Origin: an uncultured Acidiferrobacteraceae bacterium
GTDB lineage: Bacteria > Pseudomonadota > Gammaproteobacteria > Acidiferrobacterales > SZUA-150
Length of the DNA stretch: 64,000 nucleotides
Assembly (NCBI GenBank): GCA_913009895.1
Contig: CAJVXY010000005.1
Span: 2,026-66,025 of the forward strand
Direction: 5' to 3'
In this document: positions 1,469 through 47,647 of the stretch, piece by piece
Numbering within the stretch: the first letter of the stretch is position 1
Layout of the letters: the number at the start of each line of letters is the position of its first letter
The notes under the pieces: model-generated
Told to the model about the DNA's origin: nothing
The model's input: the letters and a program-made list of their open reading frames with translations, nothing else
Database searches by the model: none
Position numbers and translations under genes: made by a program

Positions 1469-2626
1469 TCACTTCTTCATCATTTCAATAAACCTGTCAA
1501 ACATGGGGGCAACATCATGGGGTCCGGGACTGGCTTCCGGGTGACCCTGAAAAGAAAAGGCTGGTACATCAGTACGTGAAACCCCCTGAACCGTGCCATC
1601 AAATAAGGAACGATGGGTGACCTCAAGGTTGCCAGGTATCGAGCTTTCATCAACTGCAAATCCATGATTCTGGCTGGTGATCATGACCTTTTTGGTGCTC
1701 AGGTCCTGCACCGGATGGTTGGCGCCATGATGGCCGAATTTCATTTTCAGGGTTCTGGCACCTGAGGCCAGGGACAACAATTGGTGGCCCAGGCAAATAC
1801 CAAATATGGGAATACCTGATGAAATTATTTGTTGTATGGCTTCAATGGCGTAAGAACAAGGCTCTGGATCGCCCGGGCCATTGGAAAGAAAAACACCGTC
1901 AGGTTTTAGGGCCAGCACATCATTGGCACTGGTGGTCGCTGGCACAACAGTTAATTTACAGCCACGTTGGACCAACATGCGCAGGATATTTCTTTTGACA
2001 CCAAAATCATAAGCAACAACGTGAAAGTCATGGTCCTCAACTGACACGTGTTGCTCAGTATGGCCCTGGTCCAACTGCCAGACGCCTTCGGTCCATTCAT
2101 AAGAAGTTTTGGTGGTCACGTCTTTGGCCAGATCAAGACCTGCCAGTCCCTTCGCCGCACTGGCCATTTCAATTGCCTCGCCCTTGCGGATTCGCTCCCC
2201 CTTGGCGGCAGAAATTATACAGCCACGCTGGGCGCCTTTTTCTCTCAGTAATCGCGTCAGACGACGAGTGTCGATATCGGCAATGGCCACCACCTGGTGT
2301 TTCTGGAGAAATTCTGGCAAGGATTCTGTTGCCCGCCAGTTGCTTTGTAACAGTGGCAAGTCCCTGATTACGAGCCCTGCAGCGTGGACTTTTTCCGACT
2401 CCATATCTTCCAGGTTAGTGCCGGTATTACCAATATGCGGGTAAGTCAGGGTCACTATCTGGCGGGCATAGGAGGGATCGGTCAGGATTTCCTGGTAGCC
2501 GGTCATGGCGGTATTGAACACCACCTCGCCTGTCGAATGACCAGAAACGCCAACCGCGGTCCCGGGAAACAGGGAACCATCTTCAAGGGCGAGCAATGCT
2601 GGCTGGGACAACCGGTAAACCCCCAA
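1469..2626 (-). CDS. carA: carbamoyl-phosphate synthase small (glutamine amidotransferase) subunit; the true start is probably the TTG at 2611
   Basis: The 385-aa ORF has CarA motifs ([30 protein letters not shown]). Aligned to E. coli (LIKSALLVLEDG), the start falls at (L)[13 protein letters not shown]. coli carA also uses a UUG start. Confidence 0.95.
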
Positions 2627-3076: not shown

Positions 3077-3385
3077 ATGAAGATAGAGTGGACGGAACCC
3101 TCTGAAAATGATCTCGGCGAAATTTATGATTACATAGCCCGTGACGCTCCCTATTATGCAGAACAATTTATCGATCGAATTATCGATGCCACAGGTAAAT
3201 TAGAAGACCATCCCAAAATCGGACGCCAGGTACCGGAAGCCAATCTGGACAATGTACGAGAATTAATTTTTCAGAACTACCGGATCATCTACCTCATCAA
3301 ACATAAAGTTATTTATATCATCACTGTTATCCACGACAGCCGGGATCTCAATCTAATGGAGATTAAACCCTGGCATGATAAATAA
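3077..3385 (+). CDS. Type II toxin, RelE/ParE (plasmid stabilisation) family
   Basis: 102 aa. It shows the ParE-like pattern MKIEWTEPSENDLGEIYDYIARDAPYYAEQFIDRI...HPKIGRQVPE...RELIFQNYRIIYLI. Confidence 0.8.
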   Translation: MKIEWTEPSENDLGEIYDYIARDAPYYAEQFIDRIIDATGKLEDHPKIGRQVPEANLDNVRELIFQNYRIIYLIKHKVIYIITVIHDSRDLNLMEIKPWHDK

Positions 3386-3449
3386 AACTTAATTCCGTTA
3401 TCTAACCAGAGCATTAAAAATGGGTCGTATTGAGCACAGATTCTAATAA

Positions 3450-3602
3450 CACTGACTTAAGCCCAATAAGTCTTTTTTTGTAGGTTGGACTGAGGAACGA
3501 AGTCCAACAGTGGCGCTTTATTTAACACTTGCGTTGGACTTCGTTCCTCAGTCCAACCTACGGAAAACCATGTTTAAACCGGATATCAGGCTTAAGTCAG
3601 TG
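3450..3602. mobile_element. Palindromic MITE-like element, copy 1 (153 bp)
   Basis: Outer inverted repeat is cactgacttaagcc/ggcttaagtcagtg. A perfect 29-bp inner inverted repeat (3480-3508 and 3533-3561) encloses a 24-nt loop. A second copy lies at 24573-24724. Confidence 0.8.
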
Positions 3603-3742
3603 CTATTCAGCACAGGCTCCTTTTTTTATAGTTTTTTAGCAGAATTAGAAAAAATGTAACGTGTGCCGTGCGCATAGTGCACGCTACGCTTGCTAATAAT
3701 ATTCTCAGGATTTAATGGTAGAGAGAATCATTTTATTTATTT

Positions 3743-4129
3743 TTAAATATTTCTATTTTTTAATATAATTGGATTCAAATAAAAACTCTGTAACAAAATA
3801 GACCCGGCAAATAAAAAATGAATTAACTCGGGCAAACCAAACCCAATGCTGCTGTTTTCCGGATCCAGGCCAAAATTTAATACAGGCATTAAAACACTAA
3901 GCATTAATAAAAATATATTTATAGAGCTTTCAATTAGTGAAAATAATGCGCCTACTGTAATATTTTTAAAAACTATAAAGCTGGCGATAAAAACTACAAG
4001 GTAATATAAATATAACCAGTAATCGTTTGCGCCGGGAATTGATAACCTTAAATTAATATCGAAAAAATAATACAGGATAAAAAAAACAGGTGTGGCTAAG
4101 TAATAAATCTGTAATAACTTAAAATTCAT
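3743..4129 (-). CDS. Hypothetical polytopic membrane protein, strongly AT-rich
   Basis: 128-aa ORF with about four hydrophobic segments. Its composition differs visibly from the flanking core genes, and no family was recognised. Confidence 0.5.
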   Translation of the reverse strand: MNFKLLQIYYLATPVFFILYYFFDINLRLSIPGANDYWLYLYYLVVFIASFIVFKNITVGALFSLIESSINIFLLMLSVLMPVLNFGLDPENSSIGFGLPELIHFLFAGSILLQSFYLNPIILKNRNI

Positions 4130-4302
4130 TTATATGTTCGCGCCTCCTGATTACATCTGGTCAAAAGAGCCGTGAACAATATAAACTGCTGTTAGCCTGG
4201 CCCCGTTTTTTTAAACTCAAGACAATAATGTATCAGGGTTCTTGTTAAAGACAGTGCCCATAACCTGGGCTGAGCCGCAATATCAAGGCAACAAACCCGG
4301 GC

Positions 4303-5103
<801 letters not shown>

Positions 5104-5303
5104 CTAAATTGCCCAAAACCCGTTATGCCTAAAATATACTATTCAGGATCAACCCACGAATGAAGATTATTCGAAAAACCAAAGAATATGAGGTCTGACA
5201 ACAATAAACAAGCCGGACACCGGGTCGGGTCGCCAAGACCTTTATGCGGGTACCAATTCATGTAAAATGGAATTCTGTTTTATGTATAAGGTGTGGCGAA
5301 ATA

Positions 5304-6023
5304 ATGGATGTACTGACTGCCTATTTTGAATGGAAGCCCTATTACAATGAGATTCTCGTTCATTTGCTGGTCGCTACCCTGGTAGGCGGGCTGATTGGCC
5401 TTGAGCGCACCATGCATGGCAGGCCTGCCGGTTTTCGCACCCATACCCTGGTCTGTCTTTCCTCTAGCCTGCTGATGTTACTGACTATTTATCAGGTGCA
5501 ACTACTGCCCCAAATACCCATTGAGACTATTCGCATTGACCCTACACGCATGGGCCAGGGAATTATGACAGGCATTGGTTTTCTCGGTGCCGGGGTGATT
5601 ATGAAAGAAGGGATAACCGTGAGGGGTTTAACCACTGCCGCCTCTATCTGGATAACCGCTGCGATTGGTATTTTAATTGGTGTCGGTTTTTATTTTGCTG
5701 CGTTTGCCTCAACCATACTGACCCTGGGAGCGCTATCACTATTCCGCGCCATTGAATCTTTCATTCCCTCTACTTGTTACGGGCGGTTAAATGTCAGGAG
5801 TTTAAAAAATGATTCAATTAGTGAAGCCCAATTATGCGACCTGGTGGAAACTCATGCCTTCCACTTTTCAAGTGCCAGCTACAGAATGCTGGATGACGGG
5901 AAGTACCTGGAATACCGGCTAACGTTGCGGACGCGAGACAAGAAAAATTTCGGCTTATTGGCTGGTGACCTGGCGACTACTGATCGAATTGTTGAATTCA
6001 GCTTATCACCAATTGGTGATTAA
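5304..6023 (+). CDS. MgtC/SapB family membrane protein
   Basis: The ORF track starts at 5244, but family-typical sequence begins at M21 (ATG 5304): LVATLVGGLIGLERTMHGRPAGFRTHTLVCL...GIGFLGAGVI. Confidence 0.8.
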   Translation: MDVLTAYFEWKPYYNEILVHLLVATLVGGLIGLERTMHGRPAGFRTHTLVCLSSSLLMLLTIYQVQLLPQIPIETIRIDPTRMGQGIMTGIGFLGAGVIMKEGITVRGLTTAASIWITAAIGILIGVGFYFAAFASTILTLGALSLFRAIESFIPSTCYGRLNVRSLKNDSISEAQLCDLVETHAFHFSSASYRMLDDGKYLEYRLTLRTRDKKNFGLLAGDLATTDRIVEFSLSPIGD

Positions 6024-9998: not shown

Positions 9999-10031
9999 TT
10001 ATCCTGGTTCTCCGGTCAAATATTGCCCATA

Positions 10032-18372: not shown

Positions 18373-18730
18373 GGGGGCGACCTGGCTTCGACGTGGGTCA
18401 CAAAACCTAAGGGGCATGCCGAGGCGCAGTTACCTCGTAAATACAGCTGCAAACTTTATAGTTGCCAACGACGACAACTACGCTCTAGCTGCGTAAAGCA
18501 GGCTAGACCTTTCACTGATACTTGCTTGTGGGTTCAGGTTCGAAAGGTCATTTCACACAAGATCGTGTTGAAGCCCACCCGGGGCCGATTCATTAAACTC
18601 TAATCGGGATCGCTTGTAGTCTACCCTGCCCGTCGGGTAGCTGCCGGTTAAATTTAAAGACACGGCTAAGCATGTAGAACCGAAGGCGGAGTATTTGCGG
18701 ACGCGGGTTCGATTCCCGCCGCCTCCACCA
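18373..18730 (+). ncRNA. ssrA: tmRNA (transfer-messenger RNA, one-piece)
   Basis: 5' GGGGGCGACCTGGCTTCGACG pairs with 3' ...GGACGCGGGTTCGATTCCCGCCGCCTCCACCA (tRNA-Ala-like acceptor and T-arm). There is an internal tag ORF, and the gene lies directly after smpB. Confidence 0.97.
18464..18496 (+). other. tmRNA tag reading frame encoding ANDDNYALAA-stop
   Basis: GCC AAC GAC GAC AAC TAC GCT CTA GCT GCG TAA; compare E. coli ANDENYALAA. Confidence 0.9.
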
Positions 18731-21311: not shown

Positions 21312-22055
21312 TCACTCTGACCTGGTTTTTTTGGGTGGCGTGGTATTGTCAAACAAGTGACTTGACCCCCCTCTCTGACCCCCCTCTCTCCCAAACAAGT
21401 GACTTGACCCCCCTCTCTCCATTTTTGAACACCAAATTAGGTAATTTGTCATACATAAATCTATTCTAACTTTATATATTTTCTCATCTAGCAATTCAAT
21501 TAGAATTGGATAAGAATATTTTTTAAATAGTATATTATTATTTTTATAAATTTCTATTCCTTCTAATGTGGCATAGTTATAATTAACCCATTTTTTAATT
21601 TCATCTAAATCATTCAATATAATTTTTTTTATTTCGTTATTATTTTCTCCTTCAATTTCTAGTGATCCAAGGATAGTTTTTTCTTCTAGAATGATTGTTA
21701 TAGAAAGACTGCTATCTGGAAAATATTTAATTACGAAAGCAGGAATTAATATTTCAATTTTACTTCCGTTAAAATAAATACTTGCACTAGTAATTTGGCT
21801 CTGAATATCATTTATAGATATTAATTTTCTGGGTTCATAACTTACATCTGTAAAACACTGATATAAATAGTCTGATTCCATTAAACTTATTATTTTCGAT
21901 ATATTCTTTTTTCCTTTATTGTTATATTTACTACATATTGTTGCATCGCTTACTTTTGGGATTAATATTTTATGAATAGTACATGTGCAATTACCAGCAT
22001 TACTTATGAGAAAGAATTCACAATTTTTACAATTTTCATTATTAACAATCATCAT
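21312..22055 (-). CDS. Hypothetical protein, very AT-rich, with an N-terminal Cys cluster
   Basis: 247 aa. The N-terminus reads CKNCEFF...NCTCTIH...ICSKY. The last ~35 codons (ERGGSSHLFGREGGQRGGSSHLF...) are read from the 26-bp repeats. Confidence 0.5.
   Translation of the reverse strand: MMIVNNENCKNCEFFLISNAGNCTCTIHKILIPKVSDATICSKYNNKGKKNISKIISLMESDYLYQCFTDVSYEPRKLISINDIQSQITSASIYFNGSKIEILIPAFVIKYFPDSSLSITIILEEKTILGSLEIEGENNNEIKKIILNDLDEIKKWVNYNYATLEGIEIYKNNNILFKKYSYPILIELLDEKIYKVRIDLCMTNYLIWCSKMERGGSSHLFGREGGQRGGSSHLFDNTTPPKKTRSE
21351..21418. repeat. 26-bp direct repeat x2 (aaacaagtgacttgacccccctctct) with an internal 13-bp partial copy
   Basis: Full copies at 21351-21376 and 21393-21418; partial copy gacccccctctct at 21377-21389. 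Confidence 0.85.
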
Positions 22056-22306: not shown

Positions 22307-22377
22307 CGGTCAAGACGGTATCTGACCCGGGTTTTCTCGTCCCCTATTGCGTTCTCTGACCCGGGGTTTTTTTGGTT

Positions 22378-22695: not shown

Positions 22696-22712
22696 AAGGG
22701 GTCAGTACCCTT
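22696..22712. repeat. REP hairpin, form A (aaggggtcagtaccctt)
   Basis: 5-bp stem around a 7-nt loop. It contains the stop codon and last codons of the adjacent Y1 transposase. Inverted copies lie at 23465-23481 and 25661-25677, with a partial copy at 26211-26220. Confidence 0.75.
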
Positions 22713-23400
22713 TAATTACACGTACTGGCCGACCGCGACGTGACTGCCCTACTTTACAGCCCAATGTCTGCTCTATCTGCTGACGAAAATAATCATTCCC
22801 CAGCGGTGTGCCTGTCTGTACTGTAGTCCGAATAGTATGCACCTGATCAGGCGCCAGCGCATTACAAAATAATTCCCGATAAGCGTGTTGGCGAAGCGCA
22901 GCACTTTTACCCAGCGCCAGGTATTGTTCATGAGGCGCAATAAGCCGATTGAATTTACCTGTGGCATTCGACCCGTAGCTTGACCAGGGGTAGTCAATGG
23001 GTTGGTTAACCATCCCTGCCCTTACCGGGTTGAGCTCTATGTAACGCATACAGGCCAATAAATAATACTCGCTATCAATAAGACACCCCTTGTGTCGCCC
23101 CTCCCAGAGTGTGCCGCTTTTTCCATAGCTGTGGTTAATATAGGGCACATAGTGACGACCAGTATGTTGAATGGTGAGGCTGATTGCTTCGGGGCTACGG
23201 GGTGTCATTAGTAAATGCACATGGTTTGTCATTAAGACATAAGCATGAATGACGCACCCATGTTTATTAGCGCCTTCGTATAACCAGTTAAGGTAAGCAG
23301 TGTAATTATCATTTTCAAAAAAGACTGCCTGCCGACAGTTGCCTCTTTGAATAATATGGGCCGGAATATCCGGAAGATAAAATCGGGGTTTACGTGGCAT
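22702..23400 (-). CDS. IS200/IS605-like Y1 (HUH) transposase of the REP-associated (RAYT) type
   Basis: 232 aa, MPRKPRF...HAYVLMTNHVHLLMTP (HUH)...GTLWEGRHKGCLIDSEYYLLACMRYIELNPVRAGMV...YPWSSY. It is bracketed by inverted REP hairpins. Confidence 0.8.
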   Translation of the reverse strand: MPRKPRFYLPDIPAHIIQRGNCRQAVFFENDNYTAYLNWLYEGANKHGCVIHAYVLMTNHVHLLMTPRSPEAISLTIQHTGRHYVPYINHSYGKSGTLWEGRHKGCLIDSEYYLLACMRYIELNPVRAGMVNQPIDYPWSSYGSNATGKFNRLIAPHEQYLALGKSAALRQHAYRELFCNALAPDQVHTIRTTVQTGTPLGNDYFRQQIEQTLGCKVGQSRRGRPVRVIKGY

Positions 23401-23464
23401 ATGAACATCCTTGTTCAGTTAATGACGTTTAAATTTTAACGGGTTTTTGTATTTAAGGGTACTG

Positions 23465-23481
23465 ACCCCTTTGTTACTTAA
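23465..23481. repeat. REP hairpin, form B (aagggtactgacccctt)
   Basis: Exact reverse complement of the 22696-22712 copy, on the other side of the Y1 transposase gene. Confidence 0.75.
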
Positions 23482-24523: not shown

Positions 24524-24572
24524 AATTATATTTTTTATCAAAACCCGAAAAACCCGGGTCAGAGAATAATGG

Positions 24573-24724
24573 CACTGACTTAAGCCCAATAAGTCTTTTG
24601 TGTAGGTTGGACTGAGGAACGAAGTCCAACGCAAGTGCTAAATAAAGCGCCGCTGTTGGACTTCGTTCCTCAGTCCAACCTACGGAGAACTATGTTTAAA
24701 CCAGATATTAGGCTTAAGTCAATG
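24573..24724. mobile_element. Palindromic MITE-like element, copy 2
   Basis: Same outer ends and the same perfect 29-bp arms (24602-24630 and 24655-24683) as copy 1. The 24-nt loop is the reverse complement of the copy-1 loop (22 of 24 positions). Confidence 0.8.
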
Positions 24725-24766
24725 CCATTAGGGTCTGCCATTAGGGTCAGTGCCATTAGGGTCAGA
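24724..24766. repeat. Tandem repeat gccattagggtc(n) x3
   Basis: gccattagggtct gccattagggtcagt gccattagggtcaga, abutting the MITE. Confidence 0.8.
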
Positions 24767-24786
24767 GAACAATTATTACTAATATA

Positions 24787-25526
24787 CTAATCAATGTAAT
24801 ACACACCCAAGCTTTCTTCAATACAGGGCCGTCCAGCCTGCCCTTTTCTTGTTTGTCTTTTGGTCATTTGTTCTATTTTATCTTTAAAATCATCTCGTCC
24901 TAACACCAATTCCTGATTCAGTGCTTCACGAATATCATGCAACAGGGTGCCATCCATATGATGGTGAAACAATTCCCGGTATGCGTGTTGTCTTGCGGCT
25001 GTTGTATTCGCTATTGCTAAATACAGGGGGTGGGGTGTTATCAATGTATCTGACCTGCTCTGGGCATGAAAGGCGTAACGGACCAACGATACTCGCCGGT
25101 ATGTTTAACCATGTTGGCACGAACAGGGTTGAGTTCAATGTAGCGCATACAAGTCAGCAGGTACGCTTCGCTATCAATCAGGCTGGCCTTAAACCGACCT
25201 TCCCAGAGCGTGCCAGAACGTTTGTATTCATGGTTAATATAACGGACATAACGCCTGCCCAGTGATTGCATGACTTCTGAAATACCGAATTCTGTTAAGG
25301 GCGTGATGAGCAGGTGTACATGGTTAGTCATCAAGACATAAGCATGGATATGACAATGAAACTTGTCACAGGCTGATTTCAGATCTTGTTTGTAGCGAAC
25401 ATAATCCTGTTCTGAAAAGAAACAAGGCTCACGATTGTGACCTCTTTGGATGATGTGTTGGGGTACGCCGGGCAGAGTAAAACGGGGTTTTCTTGGCATA
25501 TTCACCTCCTTGTGAATGGTTACCAT
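24787..25526 (-). pseudogene. Second Y1/RAYT-type transposase paralog, split by a frameshift near 25040-25090
   Basis: ORF 25041-25526 carries MPRKPRF...NHVHLLITP...GTLWEGRFKASLIDSEAYLLTCMRYIELNPVRANMV...YRWS. ORF 24787-25086 continues in another frame with YAFHAQ...ARQHAYRELF..., collinear with the intact paralog. Confidence 0.7.
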
Positions 25527-25590
25527 TTAAAATTATTATATGATTTTATTTTAAAATATTAGCAGTTATGTATATTAGAAGATATTGTTC

Positions 25591-25620
25591 TCTGACCCGG
25601 GTTTTTCTGACCCGGGTTTT
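25591..25620. repeat. 15-bp tandem repeat tctgacccgggtttt x2
   Basis: Read directly. Related single copies lie at about 22321-22336 and 22349-22366 and, in reverse orientation, at 24547-24564 and 24758-24770. Confidence 0.8.
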
Positions 25621-44477: not shown

Positions 44478-44678
44478 TTATACCTTGTTCACAAAATCCC
44501 TGCCACCCGCCTCGCGCAGCATATTTGCTATTTCTTCCTGAAACCTGGTAATTGCAAAACGCACGGGTGAAAAACCGTTGTGATTGGGGACATTGGGGTC
44601 AGCGCCATATTTCAGTAATACCTTAACAACCTCAGCATGGGCACTGGTCACTGCGCCCCATAATGGTGTCGTGCACAT
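44478..44678 (-). pseudogene. 3' fragment of an ankyrin-repeat gene (a duplicate of the 3' end of 47027-47647)
   Basis: It encodes ...TTPLWGAVTSAHAEVVKVLLKYGADPNVPNHNGFSPVRFAITRFQEEIANMLREAGGRDFV. By eye the DNA is about 90 percent identical to 47037-47232. Confidence 0.7.
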
Positions 44679-44783
44679 AATGAAGGCCGGTCAAACACGG
44701 GCTTTACCCGCCATTGTTTTGTTCTTAATCGCTTATACTATATATACGGTTAGTGACAGGTCACTAAATAATTAACCCAGCCA

Positions 44784-47026: not shown

Positions 47027-47647
47027 TTACTCTCTCTGTACCTTAATCACAAAATCCCTGCCACCCGCCTCGCGCAACATATTTGCTATTTCTTCCTGAA
47101 ACCTGGTAACTGCAAAACGCACGGGTGAAAAACCGTTGTGATTGGGAACATTGGGATCGGCGCCATATTTCAGTAATAGCTTAACGACATCAGCATGGGC
47201 GCTGGTCACGGCCCCCCAGAATGGTGTTGTGCCAATATTATTCTTTGCATGAATATCTGCCCCTTTAGAAATCAGCAACTCTATAGTTGCAAGGTTATCT
47301 GTCCAGGTAGCGTGTTCCAATGGTGTGTTACCCAGATCGTCCCGGGTGTTTATTTTTGCACCCTTTTCCAGTAACAACTTTACAACATCAGTATGGCCGG
47401 CAGTGGCCGCGGTCATTAGTGGTGTATTACCTTTATAATCCCTGGCATCAACAGCCATACCAGCTGCCAGGAGTTTTTTAACGTCTGCTATATTTCCAGC
47501 TTTGGTAGCTGTGTGTAGCGCATCCCCATTGCTGATAGCCATAACAGGCTGCAAGATCATAAAAAGTATTGCCGGAAATATAAATGATCTGGGAATTGTC
47601 ATAATCGTTACGCCTTGTTTCTGTTGGATAATAATCATAATACGCAA
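47027..47647 (-). CDS. Secreted ankyrin-repeat protein
   Basis: The probable start is MTIPRSFIFPAILFMILQPVMA (ATG 47602). It has four to five ANK repeats (GNTPLMTAATAGHTDVVKLLLEKGAKIN...). Confidence 0.8.
   Translation of the reverse strand: MRIMIIIQQKQGVTIMTIPRSFIFPAILFMILQPVMAISNGDALHTATKAGNIADVKKLLAAGMAVDARDYKGNTPLMTAATAGHTDVVKLLLEKGAKINTRDDLGNTPLEHATWTDNLATIELLISKGADIHAKNNIGTTPFWGAVTSAHADVVKLLLKYGADPNVPNHNGFSPVRFAVTRFQEEIANMLREAGGRDFVIKVQRE

Follow-up and report, generated by a model that had tools for sequence, protein, structure and literature searches.

A GTAG-tagged REP dimer nested in an asymmetric palindrome is found with its centre in both orientations in an uncultured Acidiferrobacteraceae bacterium

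The stretch of DNA analysed here, referred to as the window, comprises 64,000 nucleotides (nt) from an uncultured Acidiferrobacteraceae bacterium (GenBank assembly GCA_913009895.1, contig CAJVXY010000005.1, positions 2,026 to 66,025). It contains two copies of a palindromic element, at 3450-3602 and 24573-24724, in which a head-to-head dimer of a GTAG-tagged repetitive extragenic palindrome (REP) is enclosed by an asymmetric palindromic shell. The shell has the same orientation in both copies, and the 24-nt centre between the two REP units is inverted relative to it in one copy as compared with the other. The two orientations point to one event in the past, a strand switch or a recombination, and not to a genetic switch at work. 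The explanation that we consider probable is a nested selfish REP-dimer palindrome whose centre was flipped by a past strand switch, with spread of the family handled by a Y1 transposase and the flip arising as a neutral by-product.

Both copies share a single layout, read from the sequence and by script: a 14-nt end, a short spacer, a 29-nt arm, the 24-nt centre, the complementary arm, a 27-nt spacer and the inverted 14-nt end. Copy 1 is 153 bp and copy 2 is 152 bp in length, with a left spacer of 16 nt and 15 nt, respectively, and a right spacer of 27 nt in both. In what follows, S and L denote the short and the long half of the shell, F the centre orientation of copy 1 and R that of copy 2. 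The features of the two copies are listed below in window coordinates.

3450..3602, no strand: copy 1, configuration S-F-L; likeness to the other copies reaches about 3444-3608
3450..3463, + strand: left outer terminal inverted repeat of copy 1, CACTGACTTAAGCC, exact, pairing with 3589-3602 (-)
3464..3479, + strand: short (S) shell spacer of copy 1, CAATAAGTCTTTTTTT
3480..3508, + strand: REP unit of copy 1, consisting of GTAG, an 8-bp stem GTTGGACT/AGTCCAAC and a 9-nt loop GAGGAACGA
3509..3532, + strand: 24-nt centre (dimer spacer) of copy 1, orientation F, AGTGGCGCTTTATTTAACACTTGC
3533..3561, - strand: inverted REP unit of copy 1, giving a head-to-head dimer with the GTAG tags outside
3562..3588, + strand: long (L) shell spacer of copy 1, with an extra segment of 11-13 nt (...CCATGTTTAAACCGG...) relative to S
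3589..3602, - strand: right outer terminal inverted repeat of copy 1, exact match
24573..24724, no strand: copy 2, configuration S-R-L (equal to L-F-S when reverse-complemented)
24602..24630, + strand: REP unit of copy 2
24631..24654, + strand: 24-nt centre of copy 2, orientation R, GCAAGTGCTAAATAAAGCGCCGCT
24655..24683, - strand: inverted REP unit of copy 2

A first-pass annotation of this DNA had described two palindromic copies in the same shell orientation, with asymmetric spacers, identical perfect 29-bp arms and a loop flipped between them, and each of these observations is borne out. The spacers are short on the left and long on the right in both copies. Copy 1 carries an exact CACTGACTTAAGCC at each end and copy 2 departs from it by a single mismatch; in its longer form, TAATGGCACTGACTTAAGCC, the terminal repeat reaches about 19 nt. 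Exactly four instances of the arm GTAGGTTGGACTGAGGAACGAAGTCCAAC are present in the window, at 3480-3508 (+), 3533-3561 (-), 24602-24630 (+) and 24655-24683 (-); with up to three mismatches allowed, it had no match in 100 shuffles. When the two centres are compared by script, 9 of 24 positions agree directly and 22 of 24 agree once one centre is reverse-complemented. Between the copies, about 7 of the 71 positions in the shell and 2 of the 24 in the centre are different, a divergence of about 8-10% outside the arms, and all 58 arm positions agree. The perfect inverted repeats form the exact limits of the inverted segment, and everything else in the element is colinear. No third copy or fragment is present within the 64-kb window.

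As single-stranded DNA, each copy is predicted to fold into one long hairpin (copy 1, -53.2 kcal/mol, z = -12.5; copy 2, -57.9 kcal/mol, z = -16.8), from which the extra segment of the L spacer bulges. The placement of copy 1 in the gap between dapB and carA, just after a toxin-antitoxin module, had also been noted, and the genes around it are as described: carA at 1469-2626 (-), a ParE toxin gene at 3077-3385 (+), a 128-amino-acid (aa) open reading frame (ORF) and dapB at 4303-5100 (-). Copy 1 sits between the 3′ ends of convergent genes. No promoter-like or terminator-like site was found in the centre or shell of either element. A known RNA family was considered and rejected, as the only Rfam match at gathering thresholds is the transfer-messenger RNA (tmRNA) elsewhere in the window, and when E-values up to 1 are allowed, the elements draw nothing but hits to generic eukaryotic models of miRNA-precursor hairpins, with scores well under thresholds.

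The core of the element is more aptly called a head-to-head dimer of a GTAG-tagged REP, similar to the REP doublets known as REPINs or to bacterial interspersed mosaic elements (BIMEs), than a plain MITE (a miniature transposable element with inverted repeats). The earlier description as MITE-like is right as regards the terminal inverted repeats and incomplete as regards the arms, which are REP units that occur singly and in other dimers elsewhere. GTAG-tagged REPs have been defined by a GTAG tetranucleotide followed by a short stem-loop, and pair head to head as dimers whose spacers are conserved (Di Nocera et al., 2013, PMC3733652). Under the definition applied here, GTAG or a near variant of it is unpaired and precedes a stem of 5-13 bp with a loop of 2-20 nt; the single arm has GTAG, an 8-bp stem and a 9-nt loop, and folds on its own at -6.9 kcal/mol.

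The same REP unit is found well beyond this genome. A tolerant scan of retrieved DNA located it in 12 loci from other assemblies, single or dimeric. An exact 23-mer of the arm matches eight genome loci, in Thiomargarita, Candidatus Parabeggiatoa and unnamed gammaproteobacterial metagenome-assembled genomes (MAGs), mostly as singletons and in other contexts; in the MAGs of Beggiatoaceae type the unit is unchanged. A metagenome scan for arm-gap-arm arrangements revealed one further dimer, at the same locus in two samples (L009 and L010), with identical arms, an unrelated 26-nt spacer and no outer shell. In total, the window and the retrieved loci hold 25 units, all of which carry GTAG except two (GGAA in L008, GTCA in L004); the four in the window form the two intergenic dimers. 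Units at L009:11105 and L010:5685 read GTTGGGGT...ACCCCAAC, with two compensatory stem pairs and an unchanged loop, in what is a small set of examples. Since the unit is conserved across other genomes, the perfect identity of the four arms in the window is a property of the REP family and not by itself a sign of recent homogenisation.

A cyanobacterial-type relative of 32 nt, CGTAGGTTGGGTTGAGGAACGAAACCCAACAT, which has the stem variant GTTGGGTT...AACCCAAC, extends this distribution. Plasmids of Desulforapulum autotrophicum and Calothrix sp. PCC 7716 carry it with 100% identity, and the identity is about 94-97% in those of Nostoc, an Aphanizomenonaceae cyanobacterium and Moraxella bovis (about 97% in 25 plasmids of the last species). 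Its sites include NC_012109.1 27931-27962 (L020), AP025021.1 16906-16937 (L021) and M. bovis pMBO-1 (L022), and the 41 matching records also comprise plasmids of Dolichospermum, Cylindrospermopsis and Oscillatoria. For a REP, it is unusual to be so well conserved across phyla. In Calothrix, the copy is itself a head-to-head dimer nested in a longer asymmetric palindrome (shell CAATACTGCTCGGTTAAG...); it was set aside as a basis for generalising, there being too few copies in the plasmid collection.

The nesting of a GTAG REP dimer in a palindromic shell is an architecture already described for cyanobacterial REPs. In Anabaena variabilis, dimers of the GTAG-15 family are nested in long palindromes, and GTAG-15 is a cyanobacterial family with 'large loops (9-15 bp)' (PMC3733652). 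The 9-nt loop of the present unit lies within that range, a likeness that is one of description only. As in GTAG REP dimers and REPINs (Bertels and Rainey, 2011, PMC3116915; PMC3733652) and in the BIMEs of Escherichia coli, the two units are an inverted pair with the GTAG tags outside. The 24-nt spacer falls within the 20-100 nt known for conserved spacers of GTAG REP dimers, and the elements are likewise extragenic, lie downstream of genes and have a Y1/HUH transposase gene nearby. As in REPINs, the whole doublet forms one long hairpin and changes are compensated across it. In contrast to REP families, only four units are present in the 64-kb window. Inversion of the spacer relative to an asymmetric shell is mentioned in neither PMC3733652 nor PMC3116915, and so appears unreported for REP dimers in these two sources; the mutational process is known from other systems.

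The REP unit also has other neighbours. In gammaproteobacterial MAGs (L002 at 2742-2810 and 3900-3967, L005 at 5250-5339) it is followed by another conserved module (AGCTTT.AA...GATCAAAGTCAAAGGCG.CGGTGGCTGACC...), and the presence of a different module there indicates that the REP pairs with different partner sequences in different genomes.

Two additional elements of the family, L013 and L014, bear on how the centre came to be inverted. They were reached by a protein search with the open frame that spans the element: three spurious ORFs were retrieved in this way, two of which gave elements. Protein searches with the other frames of the element led to no further elements, and neither three viral-contig scans nor plasmid and phage BLAST searches with the whole element returned any match. 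The census of the family, which covers the 64-kb window and the retrieved contigs, thus stands at four members. L013 and L014 derive from BioProject PRJDB5792, in whose ENA assemblies the same organism is present at 99.98% identity. This project consists of short-read metagenomes from deep-sea massive sulfide deposits of the Southern Mariana Trough (PMC11427306). Other contigs with DapB, DnaK or the intact Y1 transposase gene end short of the elements (L011 at window position 4300; L016, 770 bp), and the exact translations of ParE, carA and a 299-aa ORF of the window had no recorded match. A further contig of this set, L012 (ENA ERZ1742236 NODE_12133), has a contaminated assembly end, its tail at 1585-1782 consisting of the Illumina adapter AGATCGGAAGAGCGTCGTGTAGGGAAAGAGTGT and low-complexity junk. 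The halves and centres of the four elements are combined as follows.

Copy 1: left S, centre F, right L
Copy 2: left S, centre R, right L
L013: left S, centre F, right S
L014: left L, centre F, right S

The centres of the four elements are 0-2 substitutions apart, and that of L013 is the reverse complement of the copy 2 centre at all 24 positions, in spite of a different shell. Copies 1 and 2 match without a difference over 27 nt of their S halves; their L halves share the same extra segment of 11-13 nt and the same substitutions relative to S. As S and L are each shared by descent, they are old and distinct modules, and independent insertions or deletions on opposite sides cannot explain the pattern. 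It follows from the same homology that breakpoints inside the arms altered the orientation of centre against shell. At least one inversion or exchange bounded by the arms has therefore happened, and the reshuffling of modules at the arms has happened more than once. The first-pass annotation had attributed the flip to recombination or template switching between the arms; with the S and L halves each homologous, an arm-bounded rearrangement is the simplest account, and it is classical recombination between duplexes that fits poorly, as its geometry seems sterically implausible. In L014, at 210-291, the same A-to-G change is found in both arms (GTTGGGCT). Pairing between the arms is thereby kept, and the stem of each individual unit gains a G-T mismatch and is weaker, as expected if the long hairpin is what gets maintained or copied.

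In the explanation that we favour, the element is a non-coding selfish palindromic repeat, comprising a REP dimer of 29-nt units with a 24-nt spacer inside a shell of TAATGGCACTGACTTAAGCC and an S or L spacer. At least once in the history of the family, a replicating strand would have switched templates within the perfectly complementary arms: the nascent strand would cross to the complementary arm, copy the centre backwards and switch back, leaving the centre inverted relative to the asymmetric shell. The S-F-S variant, L013, could have arisen by the same process between copies or sister strands, or by fold-back copying. By analogy with REP/RAYT systems (RAYT, REP-associated tyrosine transposase) and with the IS200/IS605 insertion sequences, the family probably spread as single-stranded hairpin intermediates on which a Y1 transposase acted in trans. 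A long perfect hairpin most likely yields the flip as a neutral by-product, and not as a regulated switch.

Template switching seems likelier than classical duplex recombination. The arms are 29 bp long and only 24 bp apart, a spacing at which synapsis of duplexes would be sterically implausible. A segment of 29 bp is barely above the minimum for RecA-dependent exchange in E. coli, and replication template switching across hairpins is documented for E. coli quasipalindromes. Rosche, Trinh and Sinden reportedly found in 1997 that a cross-fork strand switch inverts an asymmetric centre.

Recombinase-free inversion mediated by hairpins, through recombination or template switching, is familiar from the hairpin loops of plastid genomes and from the quasipalindromes of E. 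coli (Ripley; Lovett laboratory). The present case resembles these in that a short stretch with perfect inverted repeats as its exact limits occurs both ways round, with no recombinase. It differs in that two paralogous copies are compared, where the plastid and quasipalindrome cases concern the same locus in relatives or clones, and neither timing nor recurrence is readable from paralogues. Small inversions in plastid genomes are the subject of published work (PMC6824564).

Likenesses to other classes of element are more limited. With MITEs such as Correia/NEMIS, ERIC and Nezha the element shares a length of about 150 bp, terminal inverted repeats, a non-coding sequence, hairpin formation and intergenic location, and Correia elements, too, include subtypes distinguished by the side on which each end variant lies. 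Unlike MITEs, it shows no clear target-site duplication and no parental insertion sequence of the DDE type, and it has a REP pair as its core and Y1/HUH enzymes as candidates for its mobility. As in invertons such as fim and hin, a segment between inverted repeats exists in both orientations; in contrast to them, this segment is only 24 nt long and has no promoter-like site, Pfam named no recombinase in the scanned neighbours, and the arms are members of a repeat family.

The proposed role of a Y1 transposase draws on the surroundings of copy 2, which lies between two Y1 genes with its end 63 bp from the stop codon of the nearer one. The features beside it are listed below.

24787..25499, - strand: RAYT-like Y1 (HUH) transposase gene with one frameshift near 25078, 237 aa as reconstructed
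22702..23400, - strand: second RAYT-like Y1 transposase gene, intact, 232 aa, with inverted AAGGGGTCAGTACCCTT at 22696-22712 and 23455-23471
24547..24570, + strand: solo end repeat of the Y1-transposase type, GAAAAACCCGGGTCAGAGAATAAT, abutting the S end of copy 2 and 96% complementary to 25584-25607
24724..24769, + strand: three tandem units of 13-18 nt, GCCATTAGGGTC(T/AGT/AGAGAA), each linking element-end sequence to a GGGTCAG motif

The tandem units look like a repeated duplication of the junction between element and flank. Both Y1 genes encode the Pfam domain Y1_Tnp, and the best NCBIfam model for both is the REP-associated tyrosine transposase. The gene nearer to copy 2 is flanked by inverted repeats at 24744-24787 and 25570-25613; its frameshift falls just past the conserved Y-x-W-S motif, and the reconstructed length of 237 aa is that of most listed homologues. 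There are more than 100 homologues of 237-240 aa, and those listed are 66-86% identical. The motif TCTGACCCGGGTTTT has 9 matches in the window as against 0.18 expected, and the repeat AAAACCCGGGTCAGAG(A), which forms the ends of the 237-aa Y1 family, is found at 22321, 22355, 24549, 25591, 25606, 41361, 45923 and other sites of the window, where it also occurs as scattered solo copies.

Homologues of the frameshifted gene in three other assemblies (guanine-plus-cytosine content, GC, 43-58%) are flanked by inverted end-repeats that end in CTAATAT (AACCCGGGTCAGAGA...CTAATAT). In L017 and L018 (GC 49-58%), near position 10000, the inverted end-repeat is near-identical, AACCGGGTCAGAGAGGAA..., and in L015 (GC 43%), at about 60-160 and 870-910, only its inner part is present, AGAGAACAATT...CTAATATA. 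Another solo end-repeat abuts one end of the element in L013, and the ends of the elements have partial similarity only to the ends of the Y1 genes (GGGTCAGAGAAYAAT). The shell is thus linked physically, and partly by sequence, to the end-repeats of Y1 transposases. Both genes recall the TIRYT/TIRtron type, in which RAYT-like Y1 genes are flanked by long inverted repeats that carry GGGGWSAS (Di Nocera et al., 2013): the intact gene at 22702-23400 is flanked by AAGGGGTCAGTACCCTT, which fits this motif, and the frameshifted gene, like its homologues in the three other assemblies, by AACCCGGGTCAGAGA...CTAATAT. They depart from it in that the link between shell and end-repeat consists here of adjacency and partial similarity only, and in that the closest homologue of the frameshifted gene (86% identity, in L015) has no such element beside it. 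Elsewhere, in Parabeggiatoa (L003 at about 180-265, L006 at about 5866-5950), the REP stands some 20-27 nt from a GGGGACAGACCAC motif, which fits the GGGGWSAS of Y1-gene end-repeats, and in L007, at about 888-960, the same motif lies ahead of a degraded RAYT-like gene.

A role of the Y1 genes as the cognate RAYT of the GTAG REP is not supported by the homologues of the frameshifted gene in L015, L017 and L018, which stand without such a REP beside them; a cognate RAYT flanked by the same GTAG REP (a REPtron) was found neither in the window nor at these three homologue loci. Among the scanned neighbours (ParE, the 128-aa ORF, DapB, the 299-aa ORF and the Y1 transposases), Pfam named no site-specific recombinase; the 128-aa ORF has no family, and the 299-aa ORF none above cut-off. 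No DDE element that shares the element ends was found, the only related ends being those of the Y1 transposase genes.

Several observations weigh against the favoured explanation. The two Y1 genes score 65.8 and 76.5 bits, under the NCBIfam cut-off of 80 for REP-associated transposases, and homologues from their family in three other assemblies carry conserved end-repeats of their own and lack a GTAG REP of this type. The evidence from target-site duplications is ambiguous: copy 1 has a candidate 7-bp AGCACAG, situated 10 nt and 6 nt off the two ends; an 11-bp GGGTCAGAGAA flanks copy 2 together with the tandem array, one of its two occurrences being a Y1-gene end-repeat; none is present at L013 or L014, and no clean duplication was found at any element. 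The case for template switching draws on laboratory precedents in E. coli quasipalindromes, and only four family members stand behind any statement on the frequency and timing of flips. Neither an empty shell nor a shell-free copy of the F-spacer dimer was seen in the window and the retrieved loci.

A different reading of the two orientations, in line with the first-pass annotation, which took the hairpin or cruciform to be active in vivo, would be that the flip-flop is active: through hairpin or cruciform formation, each copy would go on inverting its centre at an appreciable rate in living cells, and a single locus would hold both orientations side by side. Perfect 29-bp arms and very stable hairpins would be the right substrate for such a process, there are three module combinations among only four elements, and L013 carries the reverse complement of the copy 2 centre despite a different shell. 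However, with 8-10% divergence outside the arms one old event suffices, the only REP dimer present in two independent assemblies (L009/L010) has one spacer orientation in both, and the perfection of the arms is accounted for by conservation of the REP family across genera; we therefore regard continuing inversion as doubtful. A second possibility dispenses with inversion in place. A REP dimer with an asymmetric spacer would be mobile and would have entered a pre-existing palindromic shell at least twice, in either orientation, the symmetry of its ends producing the same junctions both ways. Dimers with identical arms and no shell do exist (L009/L010), and REP dimers 'inserted within long palindromic sequences' are known from the literature (PMC3733652). 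The number of empty target palindromes reported there varies: they are many for the GTAG-23 family in Thermomicrobium roseum, and none was found in A. variabilis or Halothiobacillus neapolitanus (PMC3733652), which counts against this reading, as does the lack of any empty shell in the present material. In addition, the F-type spacer occurs only inside this shell (4 of 4), and the sole shell-free dimer has an unrelated spacer. Repeated hits at exactly one point would be needed, together with a separate family of S-S shells for L013, and independent insertion is in our judgement very unlikely.

It could also be asked whether the flip was produced by the assembler or by hairpin-induced chimeric reads, which would have mis-oriented the centre of one copy. 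The sequence comes from a bin of a short-read metagenome, and independent short-read assemblies break near these repeats. The arms, however, measure 29 bp, far below read length and below the final k-mers (the ENA contigs are labelled k127), so that reads span shell, arm and centre unambiguously. L013 and L014, which were assembled independently, have modules combined in the same kinds of way, and the two substitutions that separate the two centres mark them as distinct loci and not as a collapsed repeat. We give an artefact hardly any credence, and retain a past strand switch within the nested REP-dimer palindrome as the probable explanation.

Other parts of the window contain features of separate interest. 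A tmRNA gene (18373-18730, 233.5 bits) is followed, to about 26000, by an island-like stretch that holds a small ankyrin ORF, a RelE-like toxin ORF, the two RAYT-like Y1 genes and many short repeats. Integration of an island at ssrA may account for this stretch. A perfect 27-nt direct repeat, CAAACAAGTGACTTGACCCCCCTCTCT, lies in or beside the region of the RelE-like ORF, at 21350-21376 and 21392-21418, 42 nt apart. A 199-nt direct repeat with 91% identity is present at 44481-44679 and 47039-47237; one of the two makes up the 3′ part of a gene with ankyrin repeats (47027-47647, -), and the other is apparently a stray intergenic fragment.

A bolder proposal, which we consider rather improbable, is that REP-dimer hairpins whose arms are long and perfect often flip their centres and reshuffle their shell halves in living cells, without a recombinase, each copy being a small reversible polymorphism. 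If true, its rate would report on hairpin extrusion or template switching at the replication fork in an uncultivated deep-sea sulfur oxidiser and, by extension, in the many phyla that carry this REP family. Were flips to prove recurrent, the elements would be natural reporters, in wild bacteria, of hairpin-templated strand switching, a process for which most knowledge comes from engineered constructs in E. coli and from plastid genomes. Recurrent flips would also affect population models of REPINs, in that a change of orientation and the reshuffling of shells would generate variants without point mutation. The practical value of the finding is one of annotation: a GTAG REP family is kept almost base for base across distant phyla, its dimers tend to sit in asymmetric palindromic shells, and the 'transposases' in its neighbourhood are Y1 genes of the RAYT/TIRYT type with conserved end-repeats of their own.

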